In this document: piece after piece, positions 1,997 to 55,375 of the stretch
Position numbering within the stretch: position 1 is the first letter of the stretch
Layout: each line of letters starts with the position of its first letter
Source of the DNA: Eledone cirrhosa
Lineage: Eukaryota
Reading direction: 5' to 3'
Assembly: GCA_964016885.1 (NCBI GenBank)
Contig: OZ024745.1
Coordinates: forward strand, 67,146,001-67,210,000
DNA: 64,000 bases
Made by a program: the position numbers and the translations under genes
The notes under the pieces: generated by a model
What the model saw: the letters and a program-made list of their open reading frames with translations, nothing else
What the model was told of the DNA's origin: nothing
The model's database searches: none

Positions 1997-3302
1997 CTCT
2001 TTGAGTCTCAGTCATTGATGTTAGTTAACTGGAAAGTTTGTTGAAATGAATAGCAAGCCACTACCTGCAGCCTCAGATATTCAGGACGTATCGGAGGGTT
2101 CTTGCTGTTCCCAGCAAGCATGCCTTTTGAAGCGTTCCAAAAAGCGTGAAGGGGCCAATTTTCTTTAACCATCCCTGGAAACTTTTTGAGATAGTCCCTA
2201 GTGCGCCTATGACAACCGGGATCACTTTGACTTCATGGCAGTTCCAAATCCTTTTTACCTCCCACTTTAAGTCCTGGTATCGGTTAATTTTCTCCCTCTC
2301 CTTCTCTTGCACTCTCGTGTCGAATGGGCAGGCCACATCCACAATCAGGCACGATCTTTTTTCTTTGTCCAAAACCACCAGGTCAGGTCTATTGTGTTCC
2401 AGTTTTTTGTCCGTCTGTATCCTAAAATCCCACAGCACCTTCACCTGACTGTTCTCCATCACCGCCTCTGGCCTATGCTCATACCATTTCTCAGAATGTG
2501 GTAGATTGTTTACTTTGCACAGGTGCCAGTGGATCACCCTGCCCATCACATCGTGTCTCCAGCCCTTATAGTGGGTCTGGGCTAGGTGTTTACACTCGGA
2601 CACAATGTGAGCCACAGTCTCCTCTCTCTCTCCACAGATCCTGCACAGTGGGCTAGCCTCCTCCTTGTAGATATGGTGCTTCAACCACTTCGTTTTGAGG
2701 GCCTGCTCCTGCGCAGCCATTAGCATTCCTTCTTTAGCCTTTTTGAGGTCTCCTCTTCTCAACTAGTTCCATGTCTGTGGATCTCTAAATTCAGTTTTCT
2801 CAAAGAAGGTACTATGAAGGGATTTTCCCTTAAGGCTGCTCTTCCTCCTTGATGTTATTTCCTCCTTGGATATCCCCTGGCCTACTGTCCCCTCCTTCAG
2901 TACAGCTCTGAGCATTGGCTCCTTACTATAGGTCACGTATTTGTATAGGTTGTTTTTCTCCATCTGAACACAGTCCTCTATGCTGATAAGACCTCTTCCA
3001 CCCTCAGATCTCCTTAAGTAGAGTCTATCGACATCACTCCTCTTGTGGAACATGTTGTAGATAGTCAATAGCTTCCTAGTCTTCCTATCCATTTCTTTTT
3101 GTTCAACAACATTCCATCTCAGAATTGCCGCACTGTACCTAATAATAGACACAGCTCGGGAATTTACTGCGCTTATGGCATTTCTGCTGTTCAGATGTGA
3201 CTTCAATACGCTCCTTACTCTCCGAATGTATTCAGTTCTTAACAATTCCTTCATTTTTTTGTTCTTGATGTCATCAGCCTCCAGAACGCCCAAATACTTG
3301 TA
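1997..3302 (-). mobile_element. 5'-truncated R4/Dong-like element (RT C-terminus, CCHC knuckle, restriction-like endonuclease) with one in-frame stop at 2763-2765
   Basis: ORFs 2763-3293 and 2073-2762 are in the same frame. Motifs: YKYLG, GGRGL, CRICGEREETVAHIVSEC, RHD, RPDLVV..D..CP. (TAA)n on both sides. Confidence 0.9.
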
Positions 3303-3339
3303 TTATTATTATTATTATTATTATTACTATTATTATTAC

Positions 3340-3375
<36 letters not shown>

Positions 3376-3377
<2 letters not shown>

Positions 3378-3830
3378 TTTGAGTCTCAGTCATTGATGTT
3401 AGTTAACTGGAAAGTTTGTTGAAATGAATATCAAGCCACTACCTGCAGCCTCAGATATTCAGGACGTATCGGGGGGTTCTTGCTGTTCCCAGCAAGCATG
3501 CCTTTTGAAGCATTCCAAAAAGCGTGAAGGGGCCAATTTTCTTTAACCATCCCTGGAAACTTTTTGAGATAGTCCCTAGTGCGCCTATGACAATCGGGAT
3601 CACTTTGACTTCGTGGCAGTTCCAAATCCTTTTTACCTCCCACTTTAAGTCCTGGTATCGGTTAATTTTCTCCCTCTCCTTCTCTTGCACTCTCGTGTTG
3701 AATGGGCAGGCCACATTCACAATCAGGCACGATCTTTTTTCTTTGTCCACAACCACCAGGTCAGGTCTATTGTGTTCCAGTTTCTTGTTCGTCTGTATCC
3801 TAAAATCCCACAGCACCTTCACCTGATCGT
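3376..3830 (-). mobile_element. Short 5'-truncated copy of the same R4/Dong-like family
   Basis: Near-identical to 1997-2448, same 3' end, (TAA)n on both sides. Confidence 0.9.
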
Positions 3831-4063
3831 TTATTATTATTATTATTATTATTATTATTGTTGTTGTTGAAGCCACGCTTCTTATCGCCTCCAGTCTTTT
3901 TCAACGTTTTACCTCTTTTTCAACCGTTCTAAACCTTTTATTCAAGTTTTAAATTTGATAAAAGTTTAGAAGAAGTGACCCACCTAATACAGGGGTTCAC
4001 TAGTAAATAATACGGCACCCCTTTACGGGGTGTCGTATTCGTATTTGTGTAAAAATATTTTTT

Positions 4064-6075
4064 TTGAAAAATTTCAACATGGATAACACAAAAAAGAGAG
4101 AGAGTGCTGTCAGACAACACAGAGAGAGGGAGACTTTATCAGCATATCAACAAGACAGCGTTCCAGCGGAGGTAAATATAAACAAAAATATTACAAAGGA
4201 AAAAAAGATTGTTACAGATTTAAAATTACCAAATATTTCTAACACAAACAACACCAACAATAACACCAACAACATCACCAACAACAACACCAAACATAAC
4301 AGCGGTAAAGTCGAGAACGACAATAACAAAAATAACAGCGGTAAGGTCGAGAACGACAATAACAATGACAATAACAACAGCCACAACAACAATAATAGTA
4401 GGAACAGTATCAACAAAAACAACAATAATAACAGCAGCAACAGTATCAACGAAAACAACACCAACAACTGTACCAGCGAAAAGAACAACAATGACACCGA
4501 TACCTGTAATAGCGACCTCAGCACCACCAGTAAGACCAGTAGCGGCAGCAATAGTGGTGCTGCTGAAAAAGGAACCACTTCTTTTGCAGGTGTCGCCCGA
4601 AATATCGAGACAGTGTTAGTCACAGAGGAAGAGATGGCAGTCGCAAGGGCCATGGTGACAAGGAGCGCAAATAGAGTTTCCCTGAAACCTCCACCCGATT
4701 TTTTCAAGGACCAGCAGCTACGGACGGTGTATTACCGCACCGTAAGCAAAATCTCATATCGAGTGGAGAGAGCCACGTAGGCTCAAATCCAAAAGGCCTT
4801 GGGATGCGTCTGGGCACGCAAAACCCACATCACCCGAGGCAGAAAGTACGCCACAGTAGACGTACTTTTCGCCACCCCCCAGGAAGCAAAGTCTCACTCT
4901 TTGGAAACCCTAAAGAGTGAGGAGTTAGTCTTGGTGCCCTCCTACTGCGGGCAGAAAATTGTGAGGGTCAAAGTGACCCAGGTCCCACCCGACGTGCCCA
5001 TACCTTGGCTGGCCGCGTCTGTCCTTGCTGGAATTGAAAACAGGGCGACCATGCTGCAAGTAGAAAAAATAGGGAGAGAGAACTGGTCAGGTATAGGCAT
5101 GCAAATGCTTATACAAACTGACCAGGAATGTATCGAGGCTATCCCCGATATCATAGACTTCGAGGAAGGACTCCAACTCCCTATAAGTGTAGAAGGAAGA
5201 CGGCCAAAATGTTATCTCTGTGAGTCGAAAGGTCACCTCAGGGCCTTTTGCCCGCAGAAGTCACCGAAGAGGGCCCCTCTCCTTCCAATACCTGGTCCGC
5301 TGCTACCAAGAGCAGGACAGGGAACAAACGAAGAAGCCCCTTCCACGGTGAGTAGGAGGGCAACGTCCGTAGCACCCGTACCAAGGCCACGGATAACTAA
5401 AGCAGCATCAGCAGTAGCGGCAAAACCAATAGCTACATTTGAAATAGCTACACCAGCAACAAAATTGCCGAAGAGGGCTCCACTACCACCACCTACAGCC
5501 GTGGAGCACATACCCCCCCCCCCCCCCCAGACCCCACAGAATCCGACATGGAGTTTGAGGCGGGAGTGACGTGGCAAACAGTCTGCCACAAAAAACAAAA
5601 AACAAAAGAACCCTTAGATTCACCCTCCAAAAGCGAAGGCATACAAAGAGGGGTAAAGGCAGCAAGGAAACTTGCAGCAACACCACCACAAACACCAACA
5701 ACGAAAACACAACGAGACACACACACCAATCAGTAACAAGAAGAAAACGGCAACAAAATCACCCCACCCCCCAAAAAGTACACAGCCATAAACATAGCAA
5801 AAAAAGAACTCATAAAATATATAAAGCAGCACACAGACATCACGGAAAAAAACTACTACACCCCACCAACACCAAGAACTCTCCCGACAAACATAAGCAT
5901 CATCGAAATCTCAATAGAACAGTATAAACCTTTAAAACAAAAATTCCCCAACGCAGTTGGAGACTTCAGAGGGACGGTTACCAAGAGGATATACACTGAC
6001 ATCCTCTTGGAAACACCCATGACCAGAGAAAGGGACGGTTCTACTGTCCCTTCACCACACGAACAAGGTAAGTGA
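4064..6075 (+). pseudogene. Tx1-like ORF1 (Asn-rich N-terminus, CCHC knuckle), disrupted
   Basis: VEGRRPKCYLCESKGHLRAFCP; stop at 4780 and a frameshift near the poly-C at ~5520. Confidence 0.8.
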
Positions 6076-6107
6076 CCCTTTCTCATTTGCCCCGTTTCTC
6101 ATCCAAC

Positions 6108-8880
6108 ATGGCTGTACTCAGAATAGGCAGTATAAATGCACGTGGCCTGGGGTCATCTTGGAAGCAGGGTCACCTGCTCAATGACCTCAGGTCACTAAAC
6201 ATAGATGTGGTGGCCATCAGTGAAACTAGAATCTCCGAGGCACGGGTCTTCGAACCGATCTTCGGCGGGCGGCTACGATGTATACGCATCACCCAGCCGT
6301 CCAGCATCGGGGGAGGGGTTGCCGTCCTTTTTCGGAAAGGCTTGGATCTCGCGATACGGGCCATCTTCCTGGACCCAGAAGGTAAGTCGGTGGTGCTGGA
6401 CGTGACCGGCAGCAAAGGCAATGCTGTTAGGCTAGTAGCCGTCTACGCCCCAACAGGGGCATGACGGCCAGATTTCTTCAGACGTCTAGAGACCTTTCTT
6501 GGAACGTCCCGCTCTTTAGTGTTAGTGGGCGACTGGAACGGTATCTTGGATGCACGCTGGGATCGTGTGGGGCTAGTGGATAGGGGAGGGGGGGGGTGCA
6601 AGAGCCTCACCAACCTGCTCAGACGTTTTGAACTGTCTGACAGGTATCGACTGGATCACCCGAATGTGCCAATGTGGACATGGACAAACCGCATCGGGTC
6701 ATCCATATCGTATCTAGATAGGGTATTCTGCAGGGAACTAGATAAGGCTAGTATAAGTTGTCCACAATTTAAAATAGTCGACTACACAGACCACAAATTT
6801 GTGATCTGTGAGATCGACATAGACAGACTTCATAGACAAGGGCCTGGTTACTGGAAGCTGAACGCGTCTTTCCAGGCGCGTTCAGCTTCCAGTAACCGGA
6901 TTAGCCTATTAGTTAAGCGGGCGTTGACGGGAGCGGACGTCAACAACAGGTGGTGGTTCGCCCTGAAAAGGGCAATTAAAGTAGAGTCGATTAGATTTAG
7001 CAAAGGAGTAGTGATAGAGGAAAATAGAGTAGAGGGAGAGCTAGTCAGAAAGCTAGAAGAAGCGTTTAGGACAGGCATCGCAACCTACGTGCTTGTGCGA
7101 GATTGGCACTCGACCAATTCTTCAACTCGACCAATGCGTTGTCAGAGCTAGAGCGCGTGCTCTGAAACACGAGGGGACAAAAGCCGTCCAATGGGCCTGG
7201 GTGGCAGAGGCGCGATAGAGTCGACCATTGGTACCTGGCGGCGGTCGTCGAGGCAGCCGGTTTCCGGCCCGTTTTCAGGCGTTGGATCGCAGCAATGTAC
7301 AGCGACATCTGCTCAGTTGTGAGGGTGAACGGTCACCTGTCGCAGCCGTTCAGCATCATGCGCTCAGTCCGCCAGGGTTGTCCCCTCTCGTCCCTCTTGT
7401 ATGTATTGGCTCTCGAGCCGTTACTGCACAAACTGGGGGCGATGAGGGGCGTCCCACGCGAACTAGGATGCGGGAGATTCGAGTCGGCTTACGCTGACTA
7501 CGTCACCGTGGTGGTGTCGAGCACCAGACACGTCCAGATTCTCGGCACCGCTCTCAAGGAATACGAAGCGGTGACAGGAGTAAAGATAAACCAGGAAAAG
7601 TCGGTGGGCTTGCATCTACGCACCTGGAGAAGGGCAAGTCCATGCCGTCCGACAGCGTCGTGGGTCGTTGGACGGACGGACCGGTTAAATTACTCGGGGT
7701 CTGGTTCGGACCGGACCTCCAGATGGAGAAAAACTGGAACGAGGTGACGAGCAGGGTGGCCTCCCACACCCAGAAATGGGCTGAGAGGAAGCTGTCCATG
7801 AAAGGCCGGGCGGAAGTGGCGAATGCGTACATTGCATCCGTCATCTGCTACCGCCTCACCGTCGTCCCTTGCTCCAGCCCAACTCTCACCAAAATGGAGC
7901 GCCTCCTCTTCCGCTTTTTGTGGAAGGGACGCGCTCCCTTGGTCAGACGATCTATCTGCTGTCAACACCCGTTGCATGGAGGACTGGGCATGCCATGGCT
8001 GATGATGCGCAAACTTGTGCTGAGGCTGCGACATCTCTGGTGCTTCCGTGACGGTGAACAGGTGTGGTCGCCGTTCGCCAGGCACGTTTTCCCACAGATC
8101 GTCTCCTTGACGGAGCTGCAGTCCTGGGTCAGAAAAAGACCGCGGGATAGCGCTTGGAAACTGGAATGTCTCCAGGCGCTCACTGCCCTCTCCTAGTTGG
8201 GCACCAGTATCGGTGGAACATCCACCTCGGCGTTCTATAGAGGACTAGTGGAGGGGAAGAGCGACGACATTCTCGGAGAGATCCTGGGCGTCGAAGAAGA
8301 TCAGCTGTTTGCTCTCTTCCGGAGAACTTTCAGCCCGGGGCCTATGGATAACTTCCAAAAATCCCTGGCCTGGCAGTGCTACCGGGAAGCGCTGCCGGTT
8401 CGAGTAAGCTCTACAGGCACGGAAGTGCCGTCAGCCGAGCCTGTCCGAGATGCGCGCATAGCGACGAAACCGTTGTGTACGCACTCGTTCAGTGCCCGAG
8501 CATTGCTGACTTGTGGAGCTATGTCGAACAGTTGCTGTCGCGTGTGGGACTGATCCGGTTGTCGACTGAGTCCATTGTGCAGATGGTCTCGCCGTCTTCC
8601 TTCGAGGAGGAAGGGCAGGCGGTTTTCATATGCCTGGTGGCCATGGCGAAAGAGATTGTGTGATGGACAAGGTTAAAAGGATTAAAGACAAACACTTTCC
8701 TCTTCGGCGAATCCTTAATTAACTTTTTCAAGTTTCACTTGAAGGGGAAAATCAGGGTGGAGAGGCAAGTGCTGCTTTCTAGCAAGTTTGTTGAAAGGTG
8801 GGTGAATGTAGCGAGAATGGTCCGAGTGAACGGGACCACTCTGAATATACGTCTGTCGTTTGAGAGATGGAAAAATTGAG
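6108..8880 (+). pseudogene. Tx1-like ORF2 (APE endonuclease, RT, C-terminal CCHC) with multiple lesions and a ~0.7-kb deletion near 7215
   Basis: SINARGL, GDWNG, YLDR, TDHK, GYWKLN, RQGCPLS, AYADY, GGLG, CPRC..ETVVYALVQC. Confidence 0.88.
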
Positions 8881-9147
8881 AGAGGGCGCTTTCCCTGGTA
8901 GTCAGGGTGGCCGTGGTATTTTGTGTGGTTTTCGCCACGAGTAACCCTCGGAGGTTTCCCCCCTATTGGGGAATTTTTCATTGTTTCAATTTTCATTTTA
9001 TTGTTTATATATATATATGTTTTATGTGTTTTTTTTCTTTTCTTATATAAATAATAAAAATATTTACACGCACAAAACCCACATCGTACCGTCCTGTTCC
9101 GTCTGTGATGTTTTTCTTGATGTCAGCCCTTGAGGCCAATAAAGAAA

Positions 9148-9181
<34 letters not shown>

Positions 9182-15991: not shown

Positions 15992-16061
<70 letters not shown>
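15992..16061. repeat. (GATA)n tract; others at 16444-16460, 18454-18528, 24319-24411, 33734-33865, 35001-35071 and 36213-36286
   Basis: Seen directly. Confidence 0.97.
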
Positions 16062-16062
<1 letters not shown>

Positions 16063-16444
16063 TGTTTCTTTATTAGCCACAAGGGCACAAAAGAAGGGGA
16101 CAAATACAAAGAGGGAAGTTTACATACAATAAAAACGTGTAAAATGTTATCACAAATGCAATTTAAAAAATTAGTCGATTTTCCCCAATAGGAGGAGACA
16201 GTTTATATGGGTAACACATACCCCCGAAAAAATGTGAAACCCTCATCTCCAGGAGTACGAAGAGTTTGTACTCCTTTTCTCTCCTCCTCCTTTTCCTCAA
16301 CCTATAGGCTGATATAGAGAGAAGGCCCATTCACTCGGGCCATTCTCGCCACTTTCACCCACCATTCATAAAACATGCTGGGGTACAGCACCTCTCTCTC
16401 CATCCTGATTCTTCTTCCAAAGTGGTATTTGAAAAAAAGAATCA
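16062..16444 (-). mobile_element. Tx1-like 3' fragment in (GATA)n
   Basis: FFKYHFGRRIRMEREVL..WVKVARMARVNGPSLYISL; AATAAA then (TATC)n. Confidence 0.85.
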
Positions 16445-16460
16445 GATAGATAGATAGATA

Positions 16461-18453
16461 TATTTCTTTATTTACCATAAAGGCATAAAAAGAAGGGACA
16501 AATACAAATGGGGAGTTTACATACAATCGAGTAAAAAGGGTATAAAATGAAAATAATCGAAAACAACCTCAAAAGGGAGGGGACGTGATGGGGGTTGCAC
16601 ACACCCCCGAAAAAGTGTGCAATCCTTTGCCCGGGGAACACATGGAGAAGGTGCTCCCCTCTCCTTCACTTCTTTACCTACAGGATGGTATACAGAGAAG
16701 GCCCATTTACACGAGCCATTCTCGCCACTATCACCCACCTTTCATAAAACTGCCTGTGGCCAAGCACCTCTCTCTCCATTCTTATCCTTCTTCCGAAGTG
16801 ATATCGGAAGAAGTAGACCAGACTATGGCCAGAGAGGAAGTTGCCTGACCTCAGACCTTTCAATCGTGTCCACCAAACAACCTCTTTCAACATGGCTATT
16901 ACGCACAGAAACACCGCCTTTGCTTCCTTTGTGAAGAGGGGAGGCGGTTTGATTGTCATCACGGACTCGGCGGTCAATTGAATCGGCGCCACCCGTGACA
17001 GCAGTCGTTCGGCGTAGCCCCACAGATCAGCCACGCCCGGACATTGCACCAATGCGTGCGCAACGGTTTCTTCGTGACGCACGCATCTAGGGCAAATCTT
17101 TTTCGAGGGATCCCTGTCCGGGCGCCCGTGTCTGTAGAGCCTCTCTCGAACGGGTAGAGCCCCCCGGTAGCACTGCCAGGCTAGTGACTTCTGGAAGTTG
17201 TCCATTGGTCCCGGGCCGAAAGTCCTACCGAACAGGCTGGCCAGTTCGTCTTCTTCCATGTCCAGCGACTCTCCAAGGGTGTCATCGCCCCTGCTAGCCA
17301 CCAGCCCTCTATAGAATGATGAGGTGGATTCTCCACCGATGGCCTGGCCCGCTTGCCAGAGAGCCCTGAGCGCCTGAGCACACTCAGTGTGCCAGTCTCC
17401 CAGTTTTCCGGATCTTTGCTTGACCCAGGACTGCAGCTCGGTGAGCGAGACGAGTCTCGGAAAGGCTCGTTTCACGAACGGAGCCCACACCGGTTGACCA
17501 GTGAGGAATACCTGTAGGTGCCGTAGCCTTAATGCGTGCCTACGCATCATCAACCACGGCATCCCCAGTCCTCCTTTCGAAGGTTGTTGGCAGCAGATGG
17601 ATCTTCTCACCATAGGAGGGCGCTTCTTCCAAAGAAATTGGAAGAGCATGCGTTCCATGGTGGTGAGTGTTTCCTTAGGGCAAGGCACAACAGTCAGGCG
17701 TTAGTAAGTGACGGACGCTATGTAAATGTTCGCCACCTCCGCTCGGCCTTTTAGGGACAGCTTACACTTGGCCCATTTCTGGGTTAGTGCAAACACCTTG
17801 TTCGTAACCTCGTCCCAGTTCTTTTCCACCTGGAGGTCCGGTCCAAACCAGACCCCAAGCAACTTTACCGGGCCCTCCGTCCAGTGTCCGACGACACCGT
17901 CGGGAGGCATCGGTCTGCCTCTCCACGTTCCGAGTTGCAGCCCGATGGATTTTTCCCGGTTCAGTTTCGCTCCTGACAACCTTTCGTAATCCTCCAGTAA
18001 GGTACCGATCGCCTCGATCTCCGAGTCGGTCGATACCATTACTGTTACGTCATCGGCGTAGGCCGACACCGCTTTGCTCAATCCCGGTTCCAGGGGGATA
18101 CCCTGCAACAACTCTAACTTCCTCAGTAAAGGCTCGAGAGTCAATACGTACAGAAGGGAGGAGAGAGGGCACCCCTGTCGAATGGATCGTGTGATTTCGA
18201 ACGGCTTCGAAAGGTAGCCGTTCACATTGATCCTAGAACAGATGTGGTTGCTATGTAAGGCAGTGATCCAGCCTCTGAAAACAGGACCGAACCCAGCCGC
18301 CGCTAGCACCGCATCCAGGTAACCATGGTCGACCCTATCGAAGGCCTTAGACTGATCCAAGTTGATCAGGGCCCCACCGAAGCCGAGTTTGTTGCCAACC
18401 CTCTCTATGATGTATCGCATGAGGTGGAGGTTATCGTGAATGGACCTGGATGG
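16461..18453 (-). mobile_element. 5'-truncated Tx1-like element in (GATA)n
   Basis: LDQSKAFDRV, RQGCPLS, AYADD and C-terminal CCHC in ORFs 17701-18420 and 16678-17688. Confidence 0.9.
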
Positions 18454-18529
<76 letters not shown>

Positions 18530-18792
18530 TGTTTCTTTTATTTGCCACCAGGGCATCAAAAGTGGGACAAGTACAATGGGGGGAGTTTACAAAACAAGGC
18601 GTCCTCAATAAGGAGGAGGCAATAACAATATATAAAAATAAAATAAAATATAACAAAAAATAAAATTTATAACAAAGTCCTCAATAGAGAGGAGGCGCCT
18701 TGGGGAGTCGCACACACCCCGAAAAAAGTGTGCAACCCTTCTCCTCAGGGGCACAGAGAAGGGGTGCTCCCTTGGTATTTCATCTTCCTCAC

Positions 18793-21700
18793 CTATAGTC
18801 TGATGTAGAGTGAAGGCCCATTCACACGGGCCATTCTCGCCACTTTCACCCATCTTTCATAGAAACGGCTGGGGTGCAGCACCTCTCTCTCCATCCTGAT
18901 CCTTCTTCCGAAATGATATCGGAAGAAACGGACCAGTTGTTGGCCAGAAAGAAAGGTGCCTGACCTCAGTCCTTTCAGACGCGTCCACCATACAACCTCT
19001 TTCGCCATGGCTATTACGCACAGAAACACCGCCTCTGCTTCATCTTTGAAGGGGGAGGCGGCTTGATCATTACAATAGACTCGGTGGTCAACCGGATCGG
19101 TCCCACCCTTGACAGCAGTTGTTCGACATAGCCCCACAGATTGGCTACGCTCGAGCAGTGTACCAATGCGTGTGCAACGGTTTCCTCGTCGCACACGCAT
19201 CTGGGACAGATCTTTTTGGCGGGGTCCCTACCCGGGCGCCCGTGTCTGTAGAGCCTTTCTCGAACGGGTAAAGCTCCTCGGTAGCACTGCCAGGCCAGGG
19301 ACTTCTGGAAGTTGTCCATAGGTCCCGGGCTGAATGTCCTACCGAACAGGCTGGCCAGTTCGTCCTCCTCCATGTCTAGGGCTTCTCCGAGGGCGTCGTC
19401 GCACCTGCTGCGTACCAGCCCTCTATAGAATGTTGCGGTGGAGTCTCCACTGATAACCGGATCCGCCTGCCAGAGGGCGGTGAGCGCCTGGGCACACTCA
19501 GTGTGCCAGGCGCCCAGTTTTCTCGGTCTTTGCTTGACCCAGGATTGCAGCTCGGTGAGTGAGACGAGTCTGGGAAAGGTTCGTCTCACAAACGAGGCCC
19601 ACACCGGTTGTCCGGTGAGGAATACGTAGAGGTGCCGTAGCCTTAATGCGTGTTTACGCATCATTAGCCACGGCATCCCCAGCCCTCCTTTCGAAGGGTG
19701 TTGACAGCAGATGGATCTCCTCACCATAGGAGCCCGCTTCTTCCAAAGGAATTGGAAGAGCGCGCGCTCCATCTTGGTGAGGGTTTCCCTTGGGCAGGGC
19801 ACTGCGGTCAGGCGGTAGTAGATGACGGACGCTATATAAGTGTTCGCCACCTCCGCCCGACCTTTCAGGGATAGTTTGCAACTGGCCCACTTCTGGGTCA
19901 GTGCAAACACCCTGTTCGTAACCTCCGCCCAGTTTTTCTCCACCTGGAGGTCCGGTCCGAACCAGACCCCGAGCAACTTCACCGGGCCCTCCGTCCAGCG
20001 TCCGACGACGCCATCGGAGGGCATCGGTCTGCCCCTCCACGTGCCGAGTTGCAAACCGATCGACTTGTCCCGGTTCAGCTTAGCCCCTGTGAACTTTTCG
20101 TACTCCTCCAGTAAGGTGCCGACCGCCTCGATTTCGGAGGCCGTCGACACCATTACTGTCACATCATCGGCGTAGGCTGACACCGCTTTCCGCAATCCCG
20201 GTTCCAAAGGGATGCCCTGCAACAACTCCAACTTCCGCAGTAGTGGCTCGAGAGTCAACACATACAGAAGGGAGGAGAGAGGGCACCCTTGTCGGATGGA
20301 CCGCGCGATTTTGAACGGCTCCGAGAGGTAGCCGTTCACCTTGACCCTAGAGCAGATACGGCTGCTGTGCATAGCAGTGATCCAGCCCCTGAAAACGGGT
20401 TCGAAGCCTGCCGCCGCTAGCACCGCATCCAGGTAACCATGGTCGACCCTATCGAACGCCTTAGATTGATCCAAGTTGATCAGAGCCCCACCAAAGCCGG
20501 GTTCGTTCCCAACCCTCTCTATGATGTATCGCATGAGGTGGAGGTTGTCATGGATGGACCTGGACGGGATAGCGCATGTCTGCGCATCTCCCACCAGGTT
20601 GCCCACGACAAGCGCCAACCTCTTTGCTAGCACCTTGGCCAAAATCTGTAACTCTGTATTTAGCAGAGTTATGGGCCTGAAGTTACTTATTTCGTCCCCC
20701 TTGTTCTCGTCCTTCCTCACTAGCGTGACTACGCCCTTGGTCACGGTACAGGGAATTCTCCCGTTCTGTTGCCAGTTGCAGTAGACCGCCTCGAGGAGAT
20801 CGGGGAACAAGTCCGGCATAGCTAGATATAATTCGTAAGGAAGACCATCGAGACCCGGGGATTTGCGTTTGCCGCATTGGCTCAGCACGTCCTCTATCTC
20901 AGCGGCCGAAATCGGCTCCTCGCAGGACTTCGCCTCCCTGTCCGAGAGGCGCGGCAGGCCGTCGAGGTATGGACCGAAGTCCACGTTCCCAACCGGCTCC
21001 CCGCCCCTCCCGAACAGTCGGGCAAAGTGCCTTTGAAAGGCCTCACACATCTGCTTAGGCTCAAGAATCGCCCGTCCATCCAGGTCTCGCAAAGACCGGA
21101 TGGTGGATTTAGTTCCACTGTTGGTCTCTGTCACGCGGGCCCAGCTAACAGCTTTGGTCCCCTCGTTCCCTAGAGCACGTATTTTACTTCGGACAACGCA
21201 ACCTTCGTGCTTCGCGTCGAAAAACTGGCTCAAAGCCGTTCTCGACGCTAGCACTCTGGCCACGTCGCCGCTTCTAATTGCCTCTTCTACTCTATCTATT
21301 AGCTCCCTTTCCTTCCTATTCCTATCCGCAGCTAGAACCTTACTAAATTCAATCGAGACTACTCTAATCTCTCTCTTTAGAGATACCCACCACCTGCTGT
21401 TGACGATCGCTCCAGTCAACCGTTCCTTAACTAACGTACTAATCCGATTCCTGTAGGCTCTACTTGCCGGCAAGGACAAGTTGAGCTTCCAGTAACCGGG
21501 GCCCTGTCTATGCGTTCTATCAAGGTTGACCATGCAGGTCACCAACTTGTGGTCTGAATAGCCAGCCATGAGCATTTCTGGACAGCTTAAAATGTCCCTG
21601 TCCTTATTTCTAACTAAAAATCTATCTAGGTACGATCTAGATGATCCGCTGCGATTTGACCAAGACCAGGTTGGCACCGTCGGAAAATCTAGTCGAAATC

Positions 21701-22229
21701 TATCGGCCAGGTCAAATCGGCCGAGTAACCCCTTGAGGCTGTTGCACCCCTCTCTATCGGGACATGCCCCTGCATAGTCCCAACGTGCATCCAGGATACC
21801 ATTCCAATCCCCCACTAAAAGCAGGGAACGGGACGTCCTTAGAAAAGACTCCAGACGCTGGAAAAAGTCGGGCCGCTCTGTCCCAAAAGGGGCATATGCG
21901 GCTATCAGCCTAAAGGCTCTACCTTCACCACTGCCAAGGTCCAGCACCACCAGTCGACCCCCTGGGTCCAAGTGAACTATCTGTGTTGCAAGGCCCATAT
22001 GTTTTTGCAGCAGAACGACAACCCCACCCCCACCTCCGGGCTGACAGAGAGATGCGTGCATCTCAAAGTCGTCAAAGGTGAGGGCTAGCTGTCGCATGCT
22101 GCTGATCCGGGCCTCGCAGATAACCATCACATTTATAGATTGTGACCTGAGGTCATTTAGAAGCATTGCTTGCTTCCAAGACGAGCCCAGGCCACGCGCA
22201 TTTAGACACCCTACTCTTAGCACAGCCAT
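18793..22229 (-). CDS. Tx1-like ORF2: APE endonuclease, reverse transcriptase, CCHC; single 1-bp deletion at the G-run 19051-19055
   Basis: 1079-aa ORF with LNARGL, GDWNG, SDHK, KSPGLDG, FRPITLLN, DQSKAFD, QGCPLS and YADD. The sister copy at 34389 has 6 G and an intact frame to the stop. Confidence 0.92.
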
Positions 22230-24096
22230 GTTGGTGGTAAAGAGAAAAGGCACTTACCTCTCTGCGTCCCGGGAAACGGGCCGCTCAATTTCCATGCTGG
22301 TTGGGGATGGGTTGTTGGGTGGGGTGGTGGTTTGTGGAAGTGAAGGGGCATCGGTGTGTTGTGGGGTTGGGGTGTTTGTCGTTGAGTGGGTGTCTGGGTG
22401 GGGTGGGGGGTGAAATTTTTTAGGAGGACGCGGTTGATTGGTTTGGCGCAGGGGGGGCCCACGTCCTCCGTGAAATTTATTTTCAGTGTTTTGTACAAGT
22501 GCATTGGGACTTTTATCATTTTCAAATGAGGTAGTCCCACAGCAGTTATAAAGTTTGGCCCTTCAGTTTGGACCGAAGGGTTTGCTGAAATTGTTTTCCG
22601 TAATTCTTTGTTGTCTGTGTTCATGTATGTATATTGTAAGGTCTTTTTTTGTGTAGCAGTTAGTGTTGTGTGACAGGGAGGGGTGGTTTGTGTGTAGTTT
22701 GTGTTCTCTTGGGGGGGTTAAAGTTAACATGTGTGTCTGTGGTGCGTCTCCTCTTCTTTCTTTTTACTTGTTGGAAGGGATCTTTTTCGTCTTGCGACGA
22801 AAGAGGTTCGTCTTCCTTGTTGGGTGGGAGGGGTATGTTTTCTGGTAGTGTTTGCGGTGTGCGTGTTTTTGTATTTGTTTTGGGTGGGGAGGGATTGGGT
22901 GGGACAGTATTCTGTGTTATTTTTTCACGTGTTTGTTGTTGTTGTTGTTGTGGTGGTGGTGGTGGTGGGGTTGTTGGTTTTTGTTGTTGTTGTGGTTGTT
23001 TTTGTTGTTGTAGTTGGGGTGGTGTTGGTGTTGGTAGCAGTGTTTTTTTCTGTGTGAGCTGGGGACAGGCAGCCCTCAGGTGACCTCTATTGCCACAGAG
23101 GTAACAGGAGGGACGCCTACCCTCCACAATAATGTTGAGGTGGGTACGGTCATCCAGCATGACGCGCTCAGGGATTTGGGCGATGCGTTCTGGCCTTATT
23201 TGGGTCAGAACTTCGAGGCTCGTTCCACTGAACGCGTCGCCGGATGCCTTCCCTATTGAAATGAGGTTGTCCTCGTCTAAATTGAGGAAACCGGTTAGTA
23301 ACCACCAGTAGTTTATGTTTGGGGTGATGGTGGTTATCCATATCCTTTGGGTTTTTTTACCCATGTAGGTGGGGAAGAAGGTGTAGTGTGTGGACCGAAT
23401 TGGCGACACAGAGTATTCTTTTGCCGCCAATTCGTCTTTCATCAATATGGATAAACTCCCATAGAGTTTATCCTTTTGTATAAAAGTGATGTCTCTCATC
23501 GCGTCTTTCAAGACTAACTGAATTTCCGCTTGAGATGGTTGCGCTAGTTTCTTTGTTTTATTTAAAATTGTTCGGAATACGACAGTTCGTAATTCCGTCT
23601 GTCTTTTTAGCTCCGGAGGTGAATGTATAGAAAACGAACCGTTTTCGCCAAAAGACACATATTTCTTGGCTTTTTCCAGCATTTCTTTTGCTTTTGAAAT
23701 ATCTTCCAGCACATAAGCGACTGATAATTTAGCCGTTTGTGCAAAAGATATTTTGTTTTCGTTTTGGATATTAGTATTGTTTTGTTTCTCGTCGTTTGAG
23801 TTGTTTTCATCTTTGTTGTTGTTGTTGTCTTTCTCGTTTCGTGTGTGGATACTTGTGATGTTTGTGTTGTTGTTGTTTTTGTTGTCTTTATTGTTGCTGT
23901 TGTTGTCGTTGTTGTTGTTGTTTTCAAATTCTTGTGTAGTTGTGGCTACATCTAGTGGTCGGTCAACAGGTGAAGACAATTCTTCCTCTCTCTGACCTCT
24001 GCCTTTGGCATCTGCTGCTGTGACAGTGGCAGGGGGAAGCTGTGAGTATGACTTCCCCTTTCCTTCTTTGATTGATGGTGAAGATGCTTCAGCCAT
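22217..24096 (-). CDS. Tx1-like ORF1 (gag-like, CCHC knuckle), probable frameshift near 22660-22700
   Basis: VEGRRPSCYLCGNRGHLRAACP; ORFs 22660-24105 and 22217-22624. Confidence 0.8.
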
Positions 24097-24319
24097 TTTT
24101 CTCAAAATAGGGTTTTTCGAAGTTTTTCGAAAGATAAAATGTTCACAATACTATTTCGCCCAAAGGCGCAGAATATTTTGAGAGACCGACCAGATCAAAA
24201 TTTGACCTGGCAGTCCCTCTACAAAATGGTACAAAAATGAAAGTTTACAGTTTACAATTTCCGTATGAATTTAAACAAAAACTTACCGAGCGAGCTCAGC
24301 ACATGTGTCCATCGTAGAG

Positions 24320-24411
<92 letters not shown>

Positions 24412-32723: not shown

Positions 32724-33774
32724 TTACATATACATATGTAACTATGTATATCATCATCATCATCCCCATTATATATATATATAATATGGGCCGAAGCCGA
32801 AAAAAATTTTGTTTGGCAGCTTTAATTGCGCCTTAATTTTATTCAAAAAATTGTATACTAACATATTCGAATACCAGGCACTATTGGAATCAACAATAGC
32901 AGCGTCCTGGGGGTCATTACAAAACACAAATTCGCGAGAATTAGTGTTTAAGGCTTTTAAAAAAATTTATTTTTAATAATATTTAAATAACTGGCGGTTA
33001 GAAAAAAATATTCCTATGAAATTTTAATCATACCATTAGGTGTGAATAAGGAAATATTTTTTTATTGTCAAAACAAATGTTCAAAATTTAAACCTCAATT
33101 TTTTGAATTATTTCCAATTTTTTCATGAAATTGAATACTGGACATTGGCTGCTGGAAATGGAAATTAAATCGTATTTAATTGTATTTAAATTTTTAACCT
33201 TATTTTATTATTTATATTTTTTCAATAAGAAATTAAAAAAAAACAACAACAAAAAAATTGAAGAAAAATATTGAACAAATTGCGCAATCTGATTAATAAA
33301 TTACCTCATCAGCAGCAACCTTCTTCAAATGGTCCTTATTATCAGCAGCAACAACCACAAATTCAAATCAACCTTCTTCGCATGGTGTCAAGTCAGAACC
33401 GCCTCGAACTGGTTACTTCTGGCTTGTGCAAGGTGTCTCTATAGCAACCAGCGATTCCCTCGGCGTCATTGACCAAAGTCAGTGGAGAGGGGAAGGTAAT
33501 GTTTCTGTAGCACGTGTTTTAGCGTCTATTCACTCTCTCTCTCTCCCTCTCTCCCTCTCTCCCTCTCTCCCTCTCTCCCTCTCGCTATCCCCCTCTCGTA
33601 GTGTGTCTCTTTCTTTCACTCTCACTCTCTCTCTACGCACGTGTTTCCACTGTCGGACAGACAGACAGACAGAGAAATTGCTGGTTATATATTATAAGGA
33701 GATAAAGAGAGATATAGACAAACTGACGTAGTGAGATAGATAGATAGATAGATAGATAGGTAGATAGATAGATG

Positions 33775-33865
<91 letters not shown>

Positions 33866-33866
<1 letters not shown>

Positions 33867-35000
33867 TGTCTCTTTTATTTGCCACCAGGGCATCAAAAGT
33901 GGGACAAGTACAATGGGGGGAGTTTACAAAACAAGGCGTCCTCAATAAGGAGGAGGCAATAACAATCTATAAAAATAAAATAAAATATAGCAAAAAATAA
34001 AATGTATAACAAAGTCCTCAATAGAGAGGAGGCGCCTTGGGGGGTCGCACACACCCCCGAAAAAAGTGTGCAACCCTTCTCCTCAGGAGCACAGAGAAGG
34101 GGTGCTCCCTTGGTCTTTCATCTTCCTCACCTATAGTCTGATGTAGAGTGAAGGCCCATTCACACGGGCCATTCTCGCCACTTTCACCCATCTTTCATAG
34201 AAACGGCTGGGGTGCAGCACCTCTCTCTCCATCCTGATCCTTCTTCCGAAATGATATCGGAAGAAACGGACCAGTTGTTGGCCAGAGAGAAAGGTGCCTG
34301 ACCTCAGTCCTTTCAGACGCGTCCACCATACAACCTCTTTCGCCATGGCTATTACGCACAGAAACACCGCCTCTGCTTCATCTTTGAAGGGGGGAGGCGG
34401 CTTGATCATTACAATAGACTCGGTGGTCAACCGGATCGGTCCCACCCTTGACAGCAGTTGTTCGACATAGCCCCACAGATCGGCTACGCCCGAGCAGTTT
34501 ACCAATGCGTGTGCAACGGTTTCCTCGTCGCACACGCATCTGGGACAGATCTTTTTGGCGGGGTCCCTACCCGGGCGCCCGTGTCTGTAGAGCCTTTCTC
34601 GAACGGGTAAAGCTCCTCGGTAGCACTGCCAGGCCAGGGACTTCTGGAAGTTGTCCATAGGTCCCGGGCTTTGAGCCAGTTTTTCGACGCGAAGCACGAA
34701 GGCTGCGTTGTCCGAAGTAAAATACGTGCTCTAGGGAACGAGGGGACCAAAGCTGTTAGCTGGGCCCGCGTGACAGAGGCCAACAGTGGAACTAAATCCA
34801 CCATCCGGTCTTTGCGAGACCTGGATGGACGGGCGATTCTTGAGCCTAAGCAGATGTGTGAGGCCTTTCAAAGGCACTTTGCCCGACTGTTCGGGAGGGG
34901 CGGGGAGCCGGTTGGGAACGTGGACTTCGGTCCATACCTCGACGGCCTGCCGCGCCTCTCGGACAGGGAGGCGAAGTCCTGCGAGGAGCCGATTTCGGCC

Positions 35001-35001
<1 letters not shown>
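33866..35001 (-). mobile_element. Tx1-like insertion with 5' inversion in (GATA)n
   Basis: 33866-34670 matches 18529-19331; 34667-35001 is the inverse of 20903-21237. Confidence 0.92.
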
Positions 35002-35061
<60 letters not shown>

Positions 35062-35147: not shown

Positions 35148-36200
35148 AGGAGCCCATCTATTTAGCAAGTCTATCTGCATGAGGCAGATAAAATCATGAG
35201 AGTTGGGGAGGAACTCTTTGAAAGATATTCTCTGCATGATAATCAAAACCTCAATCCCAGAGAAATTTCCCAGCAAAACCACAGCAAATACATGGATGAA
35301 AAATACTTATCAGCAAAAAATTATGCATGGATATGTTGCCAGGAAGCTCTAGGGTGAGAGTAATATAGACAAGCAAAGTAGTCTATCTTGGACCAACAAC
35401 CGCTATATTGGCTCCCACTTTGCAATCCAAGAACAGGAAATCTACACAAAATACCTGATTCACAAAAGAGATATGGATGTAGAAAAAACACCTAAATGTG
35501 ACAAGTGCAGACTCTGCCCAATTAAAATCGAAGAGCAGCTGTCATAAGCAGCTGTCCAAAGATGTCATCAAAAGCTACAACAATGTGGAAGAATACACAT
35601 ATATAATATGAAAGAGTATTGGTTGAATTTTCCAATAAAAACCCCAATAAAATGTAAGCATAACAGACCAGATATAATGATATGGGACATAAAAAAGGCG
35701 TGCACAGTAGTGGAAGTTAGCTGCCCAACAGATGCCAATATAGTATTAAAGATTAGCGAAAAAAAAAAGGAGAATATCTATGCAGAACTAATGAGAAATC
35801 TGCAGGTACTCCACCCTGAATATACCTGTGATTATTGGGAGACTGGGATATGTTAGTAACTGCTTCACAGAAACAGAAAGAAGACAACTAGTTAGAAAAT
35901 TACAAGTACATGCCATTAATGGAACAGTAAAAATATGTAAAACATTCCAAAAGTTCTGCATTTAATATCTCCATGTACACATGTACAGATACAAAGCACA
36001 TGCACACATATAACTCAAACCATACACTTCCACACATATAATAACATCCATACCTGCACACATACTTGCATGCAAAAATGCATACATATCTACCAAGTTG
36101 ATGTTGTGTAAACTCCAATGAGAGAGTCTTGTATCTATGTTAGAAACCGACTCTCTCTCTATTGGAAAGAATTTGTGAAATTATAAAACCAGAAGAACAT
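35148..36200 (+). mobile_element. Degenerate R4/Dong-like RLE element, second family, bounded by (CATA)n
   Basis: AIQEQEI.TKYL, KCRLC, HNRPDIMIWD..VEVSCP; CATA tract 35072-35147 and acatacata at ~36198. Confidence 0.7.
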
Positions 36201-36212
36201 ACATATAGGCAA

Positions 36213-36287
<75 letters not shown>

Positions 36288-46763: not shown

Positions 46764-47087
46764 TACGCTAAATTAATTTAATAGTAGAATAAGTACGTAG
46801 AGAGAAACAATATAGATATCATTGAAGAAGAGATAGAAACATCTTTATTCAATATACACTTCTTTTACTTTCATATTAAAAAGAATTGTTTCTGTTCTAT
46901 TTAATTCTTTATGTAACGAACAGAACAGTAATTAATTATATAACAGAGACCTTCCTTTAAATATATTAAGGAATAAACGTTTGTAGGAAAAATTGGTTTA
47001 TGATTAATACATGGACACGTCCTAATTGAAATATAACGAAGTATTTATATCCACACATACGCACACACAAACACACAAACATATATT

Positions 47088-47295
<208 letters not shown>

Positions 47296-47416
47296 AGGTG
47301 AGTTTTATTGTAGTACAATAAAGCAATGCAGATATCGGATAAGAAGCACTCTACAGTTTGTAGGACTGGAGTATACATAATATAAGATCAAAAGATGGTT
47401 AAAGGAGTTCCATGTA

Positions 47417-47483
47417 TTTTATTATGCGCATTTCAAAAACAAACATCATCATGCAATAATATTTGTGTTTTCATCAGATAAAA
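47417..47483 (-). ncRNA. Minimal hammerhead ribozyme in pLTR
   Basis: Reverse complement of 52380-52446. Confidence 0.85.
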
Positions 47484-48469
47484 CAGGAGAACATGATATG
47501 AAGGCTAAAAAACACTTGTGGATAGTGCAGTTTTAAATCAACATATGAAAAGTGGTTTTAGATTGATGTGTGATATTGGGAAAAATATTTTATTTAGAGA
47601 GGGGGGGTGGAAAGGATGAAAAAGGGGAGGAGATGAGAGGGAGAGATGGGTGATAGAGAGAAAGAAAGAGATAGTTTTTATAACTGACAGGAGATATATT
47701 GTTTTACATAGAGAGGTTGAAAACCGTTGGAAGATAATGTATAAATTAAAAATTTGAAATTAACGAAGGGAGGATATGTGCGAGGAAAGAATATTTTATT
47801 TATGGAGGGGGGGGGAGGAAAAAAGGGGGAGGAGATGAGAGTGAAGGTGGAGAGGGAGAGATGGGTGATAGAGAGAAAGAGATAGTTTTTATAACTGAGA
47901 AAAAGATATATTGTTTTACATAAATTAAAGGAATTTGAAAATTAACGAAGGGAATTTATGTATGAAGATACAGAGAAAAAATAATAATTGTGGATGAATA
48001 TTCTAACGTCAAAAAAAGTGTGTGTTGATAAGTATTGTGGCAATTTCAAAATTAACGAAGAGAAAAATTATTAAGGTTTGTGTGTAGAAGGATTTGAGAA
48101 AAATAATGTGAAGTTAAAGTTGATAATATATGCGAATAAAGAGTTAATATGTATTAAGAATGAGTTCGTTGATGGGGAGAAAAAAAAAAAATAAAATAAA
48201 ATAAATTAAGGATGAAATTGAGATTAAAAAGATTTATGATAGAGAGAAAAAATAATAATGATTGCGGATGAATATTCTAACGTCAAAAAAATAAATGTAT
48301 ATGTTATGAAGGATTTTACAAGGTGAAAATAGAATGAGGGTAATGAGTAAACAAGTGTTATAGAGTGTATAATGGCCTTTAAAGTAAGGTGGGAAGATGG
48401 GTATATTTTAAAGAGGTGTATGTATATGTGCCTTTGAGAAAAGATTCTAAATTGATAAAGAATTGAATA

Positions 48470-49812
48470 TTAACTGTATACTTTGTGAAAAGTCCTATGG
48501 AATTTATGGAGGCAGATAGAAAATAAATCTGTACGTCTATTTATTATAGAATCTAGGTTAGAGATAATGGTAAATTTTTCATTTAGGCAGAGATTACAGA
48601 TTTTAGATAGAGAGCTGTTCAAGTATGAGGATGCAGAAGAAACCTTCTTCCAAAAGATGGTATATTTAATGTTTTTGTCTTTTAAGGACCATATGAGTTC
48701 TGAGAGAGCAGTGTTGGTTCTTTTAAGTTTGTATTTGAAAGATGAATGATGATTATAGAGACGAGCTTTAAAAGAGGTGGAAGTGGAGCCAAAATAGGTG
48801 AAGGAATTGGTGCTAGTTATAATTTTACATTCATAAATTAAGTTTTTATCGAGACAATGGTTGTTGAGAGGACATTTATTTTTAATGCGGCAGTTGCAAT
48901 TAGAGAGATTATTAATGAGTGACCTAGTGTTATCTATAGAAGGAATTGGATTGGAGAAGTTGTTTGCGATAGGAATAATAGGAATAATAGTTTCTTGATT
49001 TAGAGTTGGATTATGAACATTTAGCGAAGTTGTGTTTGACGTTGTATTTGTGTTTACAGAAGTTAGCCTAGGGTTTACAATGACGTCGGGAGTACTATTA
49101 CTGTTATTATGAAACTCAATGTTGGAAGGAAGAGATTTAGTATTTAGTATTTTATTGTTGTGTTTAGAGATGATGTTGGAAATATTGGAGGATGTAGAAT
49201 AAGAACATTTGATGGTGTGTTTGTTAAATATTTTACTATAGATATGTGAGGGAGGGAAGCATTTATTTAAGGCACTAAAAAATAATTTAGGAATATTGTT
49301 ATTAATAGAGATGGAGAAAGGAGCATTATACCAGATTACGTTTTTGTATCTAGGTCTTTTATTAAAATTATTGGAATGATCATGATTAATTATTCTACTG
49401 TAAGTTTTTCTAGAATTTGTTTCTTTACTATATTTGATTTTATCTGGATAGCCGGCTTTAGAAAGTGCGTTATTATAGTAATTGGCGTTAGCATCAAAGA
49501 TGTTTTTATTAGAGGATATGTTAGATATTCTTTTTCCAATATTACTAACTATAGCATTCTTGATATTGGTAGGATGGTTAGATTTAAAGTTAACATAATT
49601 TAGGTTCTCATTGTTTTTATGGTAAGGGTAATATAGGCCAGTGTCAAGATTAAGAGATACATCCAAGAAATTAGCTAGTTTGATACTATTATCAAATTCA
49701 ATTTTTAGGTTATGTTGGTTAAAGAGATTACGTATATTGTTCTTAATAATATTAAGGTTAACTATATTGCAATTTAGGATAGTAAAGAGTCCATCGTCAC
49801 GATAAATTCCAC
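48470..49812 (-). CDS. 5'-truncated PLE RT/GIY-YIG ORF (left arm)
   Basis: IYRDDG, FLDV, SNHP, CNCR..CPL..C, LIY..YFG..FKARLYNH, CNLCLNEK..C.H. Confidence 0.85.
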
Positions 49813-51389: not shown

Positions 51390-52379
51390 TATTCAATTCT
51401 TTATCAATTTAGAATCTTTTCTCAAAGGCACATATACATACACCTCTTTAAAATATACCCATCTTCCCACCTTACTTTAAAGGCCATTATACACTCTATA
51501 ACACTAGTTTACTCATTACCCTCATTCTATCTTCACCTTGTAAAATCCTTCATAACATATACATTTATTTTTTTGACGTTAGAATATTCATCCGCAATCA
51601 TTATTATTTTTTCTCTCTATCATAAATCTTTTTAATCTCAATTTCATCCTTAATTTATTTTATTTTATTTTTTTTTTTTTCTCCCCATCAACGAACTCAT
51701 TCTTAATACATATTAACTCTTTATTCGCATATATTATCAACTTTAACTTCACATTATTTTTCTCAAATCCTTCTACACACAAACCTTAATAATTTTTCTC
51801 TTCGTTAATTTTGAAATTGCCACAATACTTATCAACACACACTTTTTTTGACGTTAGAATATTCATCCACAATTATTATTTTTTCTCTCTATCTTCATAC
51901 ATAAATTCCCTTCGTTAATTTTCAAATTCCTTTAATTTATGTAAAACAATATATCTTTTTCTCAGTTATAAAAACTATCTCTTTCTCTCTATCACCCATC
52001 TCTCCCTCTCCACCTTCACTCTCATCTCCTCCCCCTTTTTTCATCCTCCCCCCCCCTCCATAAATAAAATATTCTTTCCTCGCACATATCCTCCCTTCGT
52101 TAATTTCAAATTTTTAATTTATACATTATCTTCCAACGGTTTTCAACCTCTCTATGTAAAACAATATATCTCCTGTCAGTTATAAAAACTATCTCTTTCT
52201 TTCTCTCTATCACCCATCTCTCCCTCTCATCTCCTCCCCTTTTTCATCCTTTCCACCCCCCCTCTCTAAATAAAATATTTTTCCCAATATCACACATCAA
52301 TCTAAAACCACTTTTCATATGTTGATTTAAAACTGCACTATCCACAAGTGTTTTTTAGCCTTCATATCATGTTCTCCTG

Positions 52380-52446
52380 TTTTATCTGATGAAAACACAA
52401 ATATTATTGCATGATGATGTTTGTTTTTGAAATGCGCATAATAAAA
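52380..52446 (+). ncRNA. Minimal hammerhead ribozyme in pLTR
   Basis: ttttat-CTGATGA..GAAA-TGCGCA-TA-ataaaa. Confidence 0.85.
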
Positions 52447-52478
52447 TACATGGAACTCCTTTAACCATCTTTTGATCT

Positions 52479-52528
<50 letters not shown>

Positions 52529-52530
<2 letters not shown>

Positions 52531-52900: not shown

Positions 52901-52921
52901 TATATATATATATATATATAT

Positions 52922-54690: not shown

Positions 54691-54803
54691 TCGCTCTCTC
54701 GTTCTCTCTCTTGCTCTCTCTCCCCTTTCTCTCTCCCCTGCCCTCTCTCTCTCTCTATCTAACTATCTATCTACCTATCTATCTCTCTATCTATCTATCT
54801 CTC

Positions 54804-55375
54804 TATGTAGAACGACTATTGTCGCGGGTGGGACCAATCCAGTTGACCGCCAAGTCCATTGTCCTGATCAAACCGCCACCCTCCTTCAAAAACGAGGGAG
54901 AGGCGGTTTTCCTATGTGTTATGGCTATGGTGAAAGAGGTTATATGGTAGACGAGGTTAAAAGGGCTGAGGCCAGACACGTTTCTCTCCGGCGAGCAACT
55001 GATTCGTTTTTTCAAATATCATTTTGGAAGAAGAATCAGGATGAGAGAGAGGTGCTGTACCCCAGCAAATTTTATAAAAGGTGGGTGAATGTGGCAAAGA
55101 TGGCCCGAGTGGTTGTTTCTTCTCTCTATATAAGCCTGTAGGTTGAGGAAAAAGAGGAAGAGAGGAATGGAGTACTCACTGTTGGTGCTCCTGGAGATGA
55201 GGGTTGTACATTTTTTCGGGGTGTGTACAACCCCTGTGTAACACATCCCCCCTATTGGGGATTTCAATTGTTATTTGTTATTGTATTAATAGTTTTATTT
55301 TCATATACCTGTATGTAAACTCCCCATTTGTATTTGTCCCCTTCTTTTGTGCCCTTGTGGTTAATAAAGAAATGT
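54804..55375 (+). mobile_element. Tx1-like 3' fragment in (TATC)n
   Basis: YVERLLSRVGPIQLT..; 3' UTR like 16062-16300; AATAAA then TATC. Confidence 0.85.

Follow-up and report, generated by a model that had tools for sequence, protein, structure and literature searches.

A stack of LINE copies within GATA repeats

The window analysed here, a stretch of 64,000 nucleotides from Eledone cirrhosa (contig OZ024745.1, positions 67,146,001 to 67,210,000 of the forward strand), contains three mutually homologous copies of a non-LTR (long terminal repeat) retrotransposon, E1, E2 and E3, which all lie on the minus strand and are separated solely by GATA tracts. This stack would correspond to three separate insertions of an L1/Tx1-type long interspersed nuclear element (LINE). 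That insertion is targeted is close to certain, and we consider it probable that a young lineage inserts at the motif TC|TATCTAT, likely after nicking by its apurinic/apyrimidinic-type endonuclease (APE), and that the target-site duplications left behind are likely to seed the next insertion.

Perfect runs of 17, 4 and 19 GATA units, together with a tract of about 24 units, bound and divide the stack, and on the strand of the elements this repeat reads (TATC)n. The components are the following, in window positions (ORF, open reading frame; UTR, untranslated region; RT, reverse transcriptase):

15995..16062, plus strand: (GATA)17, reading (TATC)n past the 3' end of E1
16063..16444, minus strand: E1, a 382-bp 5'-truncated copy with the end of ORF2, the 3' UTR and an AATAAA signal, without poly(A)
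16445..16460, plus strand: (GATA)4 spacer of 16 bp, as long as a single target-site duplication
16461..18453, minus strand: E2, a 1,993-bp 5'-truncated copy with the RT and zinc-finger part of ORF2 and a single stop near 17700
18454..18529, plus strand: (GATA)19, separating E2 from E3
18530..24314, minus strand: E3, a full-length element of 5,785 bp
24315..24411, plus strand: GATA tract of about 24 units on the 5' side of E3

These coordinates agree with the initial annotation, which had described three co-oriented elements with differing 3' UTRs, only GATA between them, and GATA on the 5' side of the full-length copy as well, where we find the tract at 24315..24411. The 3' regions share only 72% (E1/E2), 74% (E1/E3) and 83% (E2/E3, over 2 kb) identity with one another, whereas the identity of each element to copies at other loci lies at 97-100% (97-98% to the nearest copies for E1 and 99% for E2), so the three are members of three recently active subfamilies. 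Perfect AGAT-class arrays of at least 12 bp make up only 0.074% of an 800-kb random sample of the genome, composed of 80 evenly spaced stretches, and the GATA setting of the copies is therefore not due to chance.

The repeat is a target and not only a tail

To follow the junctions across the genome (3.0 Gb), exact-pattern counts were used as the measure of copies, the totals of candidates returned by DNA searches (1,477; 1,304; 875; 1,585) not being copy numbers. The exact 17-mer of the E3 3' end had 4,007 matches, and in 3,349 of them (83.6%) it was followed by two bases and then TATC. Among the first 100 listed E3-type ends, tallied by eye with a pattern that barred G at one flank position, the continuations were TATC in 83, TATA/(TA)n in 11 and other sequence in 6. 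For the 5' end, an exact 18-mer gave 179 matches, and TATC lay at most 17 nt upstream in 96 of the first 100 listed, against a background of 6.0% of random windows; this pattern was restricted in the same way as the 3' one and the tally was also made by eye. Copies with both ends within one locus (n = 34, 33 of them distinct) had 5' flanks of TATC type in 24 cases, of (TA)n type in 3 and of neither type in 7, again by eye.

The preference is strong without being absolute. In the 800-kb sample TATATAT is 63 times commoner than TATCTAT, and yet at the 3' ends the ratio of TATC to TATA is 83:11, which implies a several-hundredfold preference for C at position +4. All three subfamilies, E1, E2 and E3, include insertions into (TA)n, which serves as a minor target beside the strongly preferred but not exclusive TATC. 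Copies running into TC or TTC tracts were isolated cases (L030, L240). At two loci (L014, L034), E3-type insertions sit at a TATCTC unit within a 20-bp minisatellite that continues on either side.

We also pursued three candidate deviations from this pattern and rejected them. One E3 end-variant seemed to use TA more often, and its proportion of 5/12 shrank to 17/100 in a larger list; in a post hoc split, (TA)-type sites numbered 16/61 on C1 and 1/39 on C2. A third target class was sought with a pattern for 3' ends lacking both TATC and ATT, and of its 367 matches the 30 that were fetched proved to be mostly variants of those two classes. L158, at first a candidate for a new target on account of its (TAG)n-like flank, belongs to an older subfamily of the ATT lineage described below.

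Duplications define a short motif

The clearest evidence comes from the target-site duplications, which are 11-23 bp long, apart from one 28-bp match in satellite sequence, and start exactly at the 3' end of the element. Some of them hold unique sequence, both in truncated copies (such as L022, L066, L074 and L087) and in full-length E2 copies (L341, L344-L348). From 28 duplication loci, picked by hand for their informative sequence, re-derivation gave 27 sites, whose alignment contains T27 A27 T27 C24 T26 A24 T26 at positions +1 to +7, preceded by C22 at -1 and T24 at -2. Moreover, a lone TATC unit in non-repeat DNA served as the insertion site at L066 and L347. Together, the alignment and these single-unit sites show that the target is the short motif TC|TATCTAT and not a long array, the GATA arrays being its densest source. 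Where TATC was present and the four bases upstream were not TATC, TC or CC occupied -2/-1 in 5/9 sites, compared with a background of 11% (p = 0.0015).

The initial annotation had proposed that GATA is a target rather than only a tail, and had named a majority of 5' flanks without GATA as grounds for abandoning the idea. Both the duplications and the 5' flanks of full-length and truncated copies bear the proposal out, with TATC at nearly all the full-length 5' ends listed, and a logo of the 27 hand-picked duplications yields TC|TATCTAT. Its wording of a GATA-specific family needs narrowing: the strong preference stands (3,349/4,007), while the short motif is also used outside arrays, and so is (TA)n.

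Probable build-up of stacks by repeated insertion

Stacking three deep is ordinary for the TATC lineage. When E3-type ends were taken in chromosome order, 11/30 had Tx1-like sequence at most 1.5 kb downstream, all of it co-oriented and in 7 cases starting within 30 nt. Gaps between neighbours fell below 12 kb in 13/99 cases, compared with 1.3 expected, and 12 of the 13 pairs were co-oriented. At L342, L022 and L087 the duplication reaches into the start of the element downstream, showing that a younger copy inserted ahead of an older one. In the stack of the window the duplications are pure TATC, and for this reason the order of insertion cannot be read there. Each insertion would duplicate its site and leave the motif at both ends, and in this way probably seeds the next co-oriented insertion.

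Coding content of E3 and its open relatives

E3 has two reading frames, both shortened in comparison with open copies:

19014..22229, minus strand: ORF2, with APE endonuclease, RT and zinc finger; 1,071 amino acids, versus 1,145 in open copies
22660..24096, minus strand: ORF1, with an Asn-rich N-terminus and one CCHC knuckle; 478 amino acids, versus 616-617 in open copies

ORF2 is cut short by a frame break near its C-terminus, and ORF1 by another, after which reading resumes in 22217-22717. We fetched 20 other full-length copies and resolved 19; the 1,145-residue ORF2 is present in 7/19, and both frames are full length in L123 and L126, natural copies to which E3 is about 98.4% identical. Pfam matches in ORF2 were Exo_endo_phos, RVT_1 and zf-RVT, and its best solved relative by sequence is human L1 ORF2p (E = 1.5e-48, versus 5e-18 for R2). 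Homologues at 37-44% identity were also found (P0002-P0032). The ORF1 knuckle, C-x2-C-x4-H-x4-C, is present in 6/6 aligned ORF1 proteins, and zf-CCHC matched 4/4 of those scanned, all under the curated cutoff of Pfam; a homologue search with ORF1 returned a single protein, at 34% identity.

E3 itself looks mosaic. Its body (19130-20330) is 98-100% identical to L123 and 92-94% to L009, and its last 300 bp (18530-18830) are 91% identical to L123 and 99% to L009, a pattern which suggests that 3' ends have been exchanged between subfamilies. In full-length copies (E3 and 100 listed relatives), the duplication is separated from the conserved 5' end by a variable pyrimidine-rich stretch of 5-9 nt ending in TA, and this stretch possibly represents the transcript start or untemplated bases.

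A sister lineage inserts in ATT repeats

The window also contains a decayed relative of these elements with a different microsatellite at its ends:

3861..9149, plus strand: T1, a sister element, decayed and nearly full length, bordered by (ATT)n on both sides

In this ATT lineage, 30/30 of the best-matching 5' ends lie in (ATT)n, and only 4 non-pure duplications were found, not enough to build a logo. In a tree of APE domains, 7 TATC-type copies grouped together with support 95 and 7 ATT-type copies with support 99, each clade including one copy with a provisional label and the outgroups being unnamed or generically named. RT sequences put L158 next to the TATC clade, at the end of a long branch and with little support (60); taken alone, the RT tree therefore does not unite the ATT set as one clade. 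About 1.8% of the 800-kb sample derives from one lineage and 2.9% from the other.

The endonuclease domains of the two lineages are 57-60% identical, with 18 fixed amino-acid differences among the firmly labelled rows (6+6). One of these, S194I, aligns to P197 of L1, a residue at the tip of a hairpin bent towards the minor groove of the DNA (PMC1950540). Grafts of this loop between distant enzymes failed to transfer specificity (PMC1950540), so that S194I is a lead only, a candidate specificity determinant.

Selection of the insertion site

Target-primed reverse transcription is the established mechanism of LINE insertion. By this route the APE endonuclease would likely nick TC|TATCTAT with its cut in the GATA strand, at about GATA^GATA, releasing a 3' end from which cDNA would be primed on the element RNA; should the RNA tail pair with this primer, the nick can be placed only to within one repeat unit. 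Such pairing is plausible: an AATAAA signal is present some 6 nt before the end, yet poly(A) is absent from every 3' junction listed, and its role may be taken by a short stretch of TATC read through at the RNA's 3' terminus. The catalytic residues of the endonuclease are conserved, and an AlphaFold model of the E3 domain (predicted local distance difference test, pLDDT, 91.8) found its best match in the human L1 endonuclease (template modelling score, TM, 0.81). The target class follows the APE tree, with a TATC and an ATT clade, and the bases at -2/-1, which lie off the primer, are nevertheless enriched in TC/CC, which favours readout by the protein. We infer that the APE endonuclease is the main selector, and hold selection led by it to be probable.

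Pairing between RNA and DNA might itself be the main selector, if the transcript reads into its own TATC flank and a loosely specific nick leads to insertion only at sites whose primer pairs with this tail. The missing poly(A) at all 3' junctions inspected, in spite of the AATAAA, would fit this explanation, as would the conservation, strongest on the primer side (+1 to +7), and the 3' sequences of SART1Bm and R1Bm RNA have been proposed to anneal to the target (PMC7265360). Nevertheless, it leaves the enrichment at -2/-1, off the primer, unaccounted for; (TA)n insertions are spread across the E1, E2 and E3 subfamilies without any takeover, even though TA sites are 63-fold commoner; and the TA excess of one end-variant fell from 5/12 to 17/100. 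We regard it as unlikely. A stronger form, in which the flanking repeat, copied into the RNA of the element, dictates the target, so that a lineage takes over its target from the site of its most recent insertion, seems to us more doubtful still. If it were true, the TATC and ATT lineages would represent a target switch with few or no endonuclease changes, and altering the RNA tail would redirect insertion.

Two further explanations were weighed. The TATC run could be a tail made by the element through slippage at the 3' end of its RNA, with the 5' GATA being a coincidence or the remains of older tails; all copies in the window do have a TATC run at the 3' end, and in stacks many 5' tracts are the 3' tract of a neighbour. 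However, the duplications with unique sequence on either side show that TATC existed before insertion (L022, L066, L347, L348), and many 3' junctions have one TATC unit or none. As a tail and nothing else, this proposal is already refuted by the duplications, and in any form we give it very little credence. We give even less to the stack having arisen by tandem duplication, as an assembly artefact or through passive survival of random insertions within repeats. True tandem copies of one truncated element do exist at some loci (L017), and the homopolymer frame breaks of E3 could be sequence errors, but the copies in the stack are 72-83% identical to each other and 97-100% identical to copies elsewhere, and passive survival fails to explain why thousands of sites share one phase and strand.

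Returning to endonuclease-led insertion at TC|TATCTAT, several points weigh against it. No duplication was found in 9/34 of the two-ended copies, and about 16% of E3-type 3' ends have no TATC. The 5-9 nt immediately upstream of the conserved 5' end may be part of the element itself, which weakens the 5' count for full-length copies; as this upstream stretch may partly be a variable 5' end, truncated copies are the better test. The motif derives from a hand-picked set, in which 1/28 loci had no duplication on re-derivation and 2/27 matched another duplicated stretch, and the upstream-base test is based on 9 sites. Because APE, RT and the 3' end pass on as a unit, the tree is unable to tell nicking and RNA pairing apart, and in L1 an exchange of the hairpin loop failed to carry specificity over in a modular way (PMC1950540).

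Other elements in the window

Two additional TATC-associated copies lie outside the stack:

33735-33866: GATA flank of E4
33867-34670, minus strand: 3' fragment of E4, of E3 type, 98.5% identical to the 3' end of E3
34667-35000: inverted internal (5'-inverted) piece of E4, which as a whole spans 33867..35000
35001-35060: GATA flank of E4 beyond the 5'-inverted piece
54803..55374, plus strand: E5, a truncated copy of a further TATC subfamily, with a degenerate TATC/TC tract upstream and (TATC)4 downstream

Both had been noticed as copies in TATC with always the same orientation, which is correct relative to the strand of the repeat but not relative to the chromosome, E5 being on the plus strand.

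Other fragments were noticed as well. At 1997-3830 (minus strand) there are two head-to-tail fragments of another non-LTR element with a zinc finger and a restriction-like endonuclease motif, which from these motifs we take to be Dong/R4-like; they are separated and flanked by (TTA)n, and T1 starts in this array too, facing the other way; two unrelated lineages therefore occupy one microsatellite. Beside E4, between two GATA tracts, a decayed fragment at 35149-36213 (plus strand) with a restriction-like endonuclease motif and (ATAC)n flanks is possibly an ACAT-preferring element nested in the GATA array. An old and heavily decayed ORF2-related fragment (57058-57694, minus strand; 43-48% identity) has no microsatellite at its visible ends. 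The window further contains a tandem duplication of 324 bp (1082-1744) and, at about 47000-53000, a strong GC skew whose sign changes near 50000.

Significance and comparison with known systems

The stack itself is unremarkable for the TATC lineage; what is of value is the sister pair of TATC and ATT lineages, which can serve as a test system. The APE specificity of microsatellite-targeting LINEs has been described as poorly understood (PMC3812793), and this pair offers a natural contrast, with different short targets for enzymes that are 57-60% identical. Thousands of insertion sites map the preference, natural copies with open reading frames exist for E3 (L123), E2 (L349) and the ATT lineage (L367), and the question of specificity can thus be tested directly. 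Such insertions also explain the shared flanks of GATA microsatellites in a genome of this kind, which is relevant to marker design.

Regarding classification, the elements have the architecture of the L1/Tx1 group (ORF2 with an N-terminal APE endonuclease, RT and a C-terminal cysteine-rich zinc finger) and its insertion traits (duplications of 11-23 bp, 5' truncation and, in E4, 5' inversion), and the poly(A) tail of the L1 clade is absent from the 3' junctions listed. A CCHC zinc knuckle in ORF1 is a feature of the Tx1 clade, and it is found here. ZCCHC3-type RNA-binding domains of ORF1 are another Tx1 marker; ORF1 had no match to PF23057/PF23058, and an HHalign comparison with the fish protein P0034 (ZCCHC3-type) covered the knuckle only (3.4%, from a shallow alignment). 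Kojima recognises a target preference when the same repeat is present in more than 20% of flanks (PMC4494074), and here the proportions were 83.6% of 4,007 3' ends and 96 of the first 100 listed 5' ends. In architecture and targeting the lineage fits the Tx1 label, and it is a putative member of that clade.

Within cephalopods, L1-Tx1 elements have expanded in coleoids (PMC8967140), and Octopus vulgaris has 80 L1-Tx1 consensus families, 13 of them recently active, with 421 insertions (PMC13282606). The available parts of that paper's text and supplement contain no target analysis, and families orthologous to the TATC and ATT lineages may be among its set. In the full-text literature searched, which did not extend to most subscription papers, Repbase or Dfam, we found no TATC/GATA-targeting family, and neither GATA nor TATC is mentioned in the main text of PMC4494074 or PMC8869645.

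Human LINE-1 ORF2p is the best solved relative by sequence, and the resemblance extends to the endonuclease fold (TM 0.81), the duplications and the 5' inversion of E4; the elements described here differ in their lack of poly(A), in the CCHC knuckle of ORF1 and in using TC|TATCTAT instead of the TT|AAAA of L1. Among other microsatellite-targeting non-LTR elements, Waldo and Mino belong to the R1 clade and Dong to R4, with a restriction-like endonuclease, all of them clades other than the L1/Tx1 group. Their targets are (ACAY)n for Waldo, (AC)n for Mino and (TAA)n for Dong (PMC3812793), and Dong has the TAA/ATT repeat in common with the sister lineage. In the crocodilian Tx1-1_Crp group, with (TTCC)n/(TTTC)n targets (PMC4494074), several related Tx1 families likewise prefer a tetranucleotide repeat; repeat and host are different, and neither stacking nor a switch to a trinucleotide within one genome is described in section 15 of that paper.

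In behaviour the element resembles Kibi and Koshi of the teleost Tx1 clade, which target (TC)n and (TTC)n, respectively (after Kojima and Fujiwara 2004; PMC4494074, PMC3812793). They too are APE-type non-LTR elements specific to pyrimidine-rich microsatellites, but the consensus here is TC|TATCTAT, with ATT in the sister lineage. The nearest named fish protein found, P0034, is just 26% identical, so close kinship with Kibi and Koshi is not supported and an independent origin of microsatellite targeting is plausible. Targeting of TATC is well supported, and TATC is probably a new target for a known behaviour, that of the microsatellite-targeting Tx1-type LINEs.

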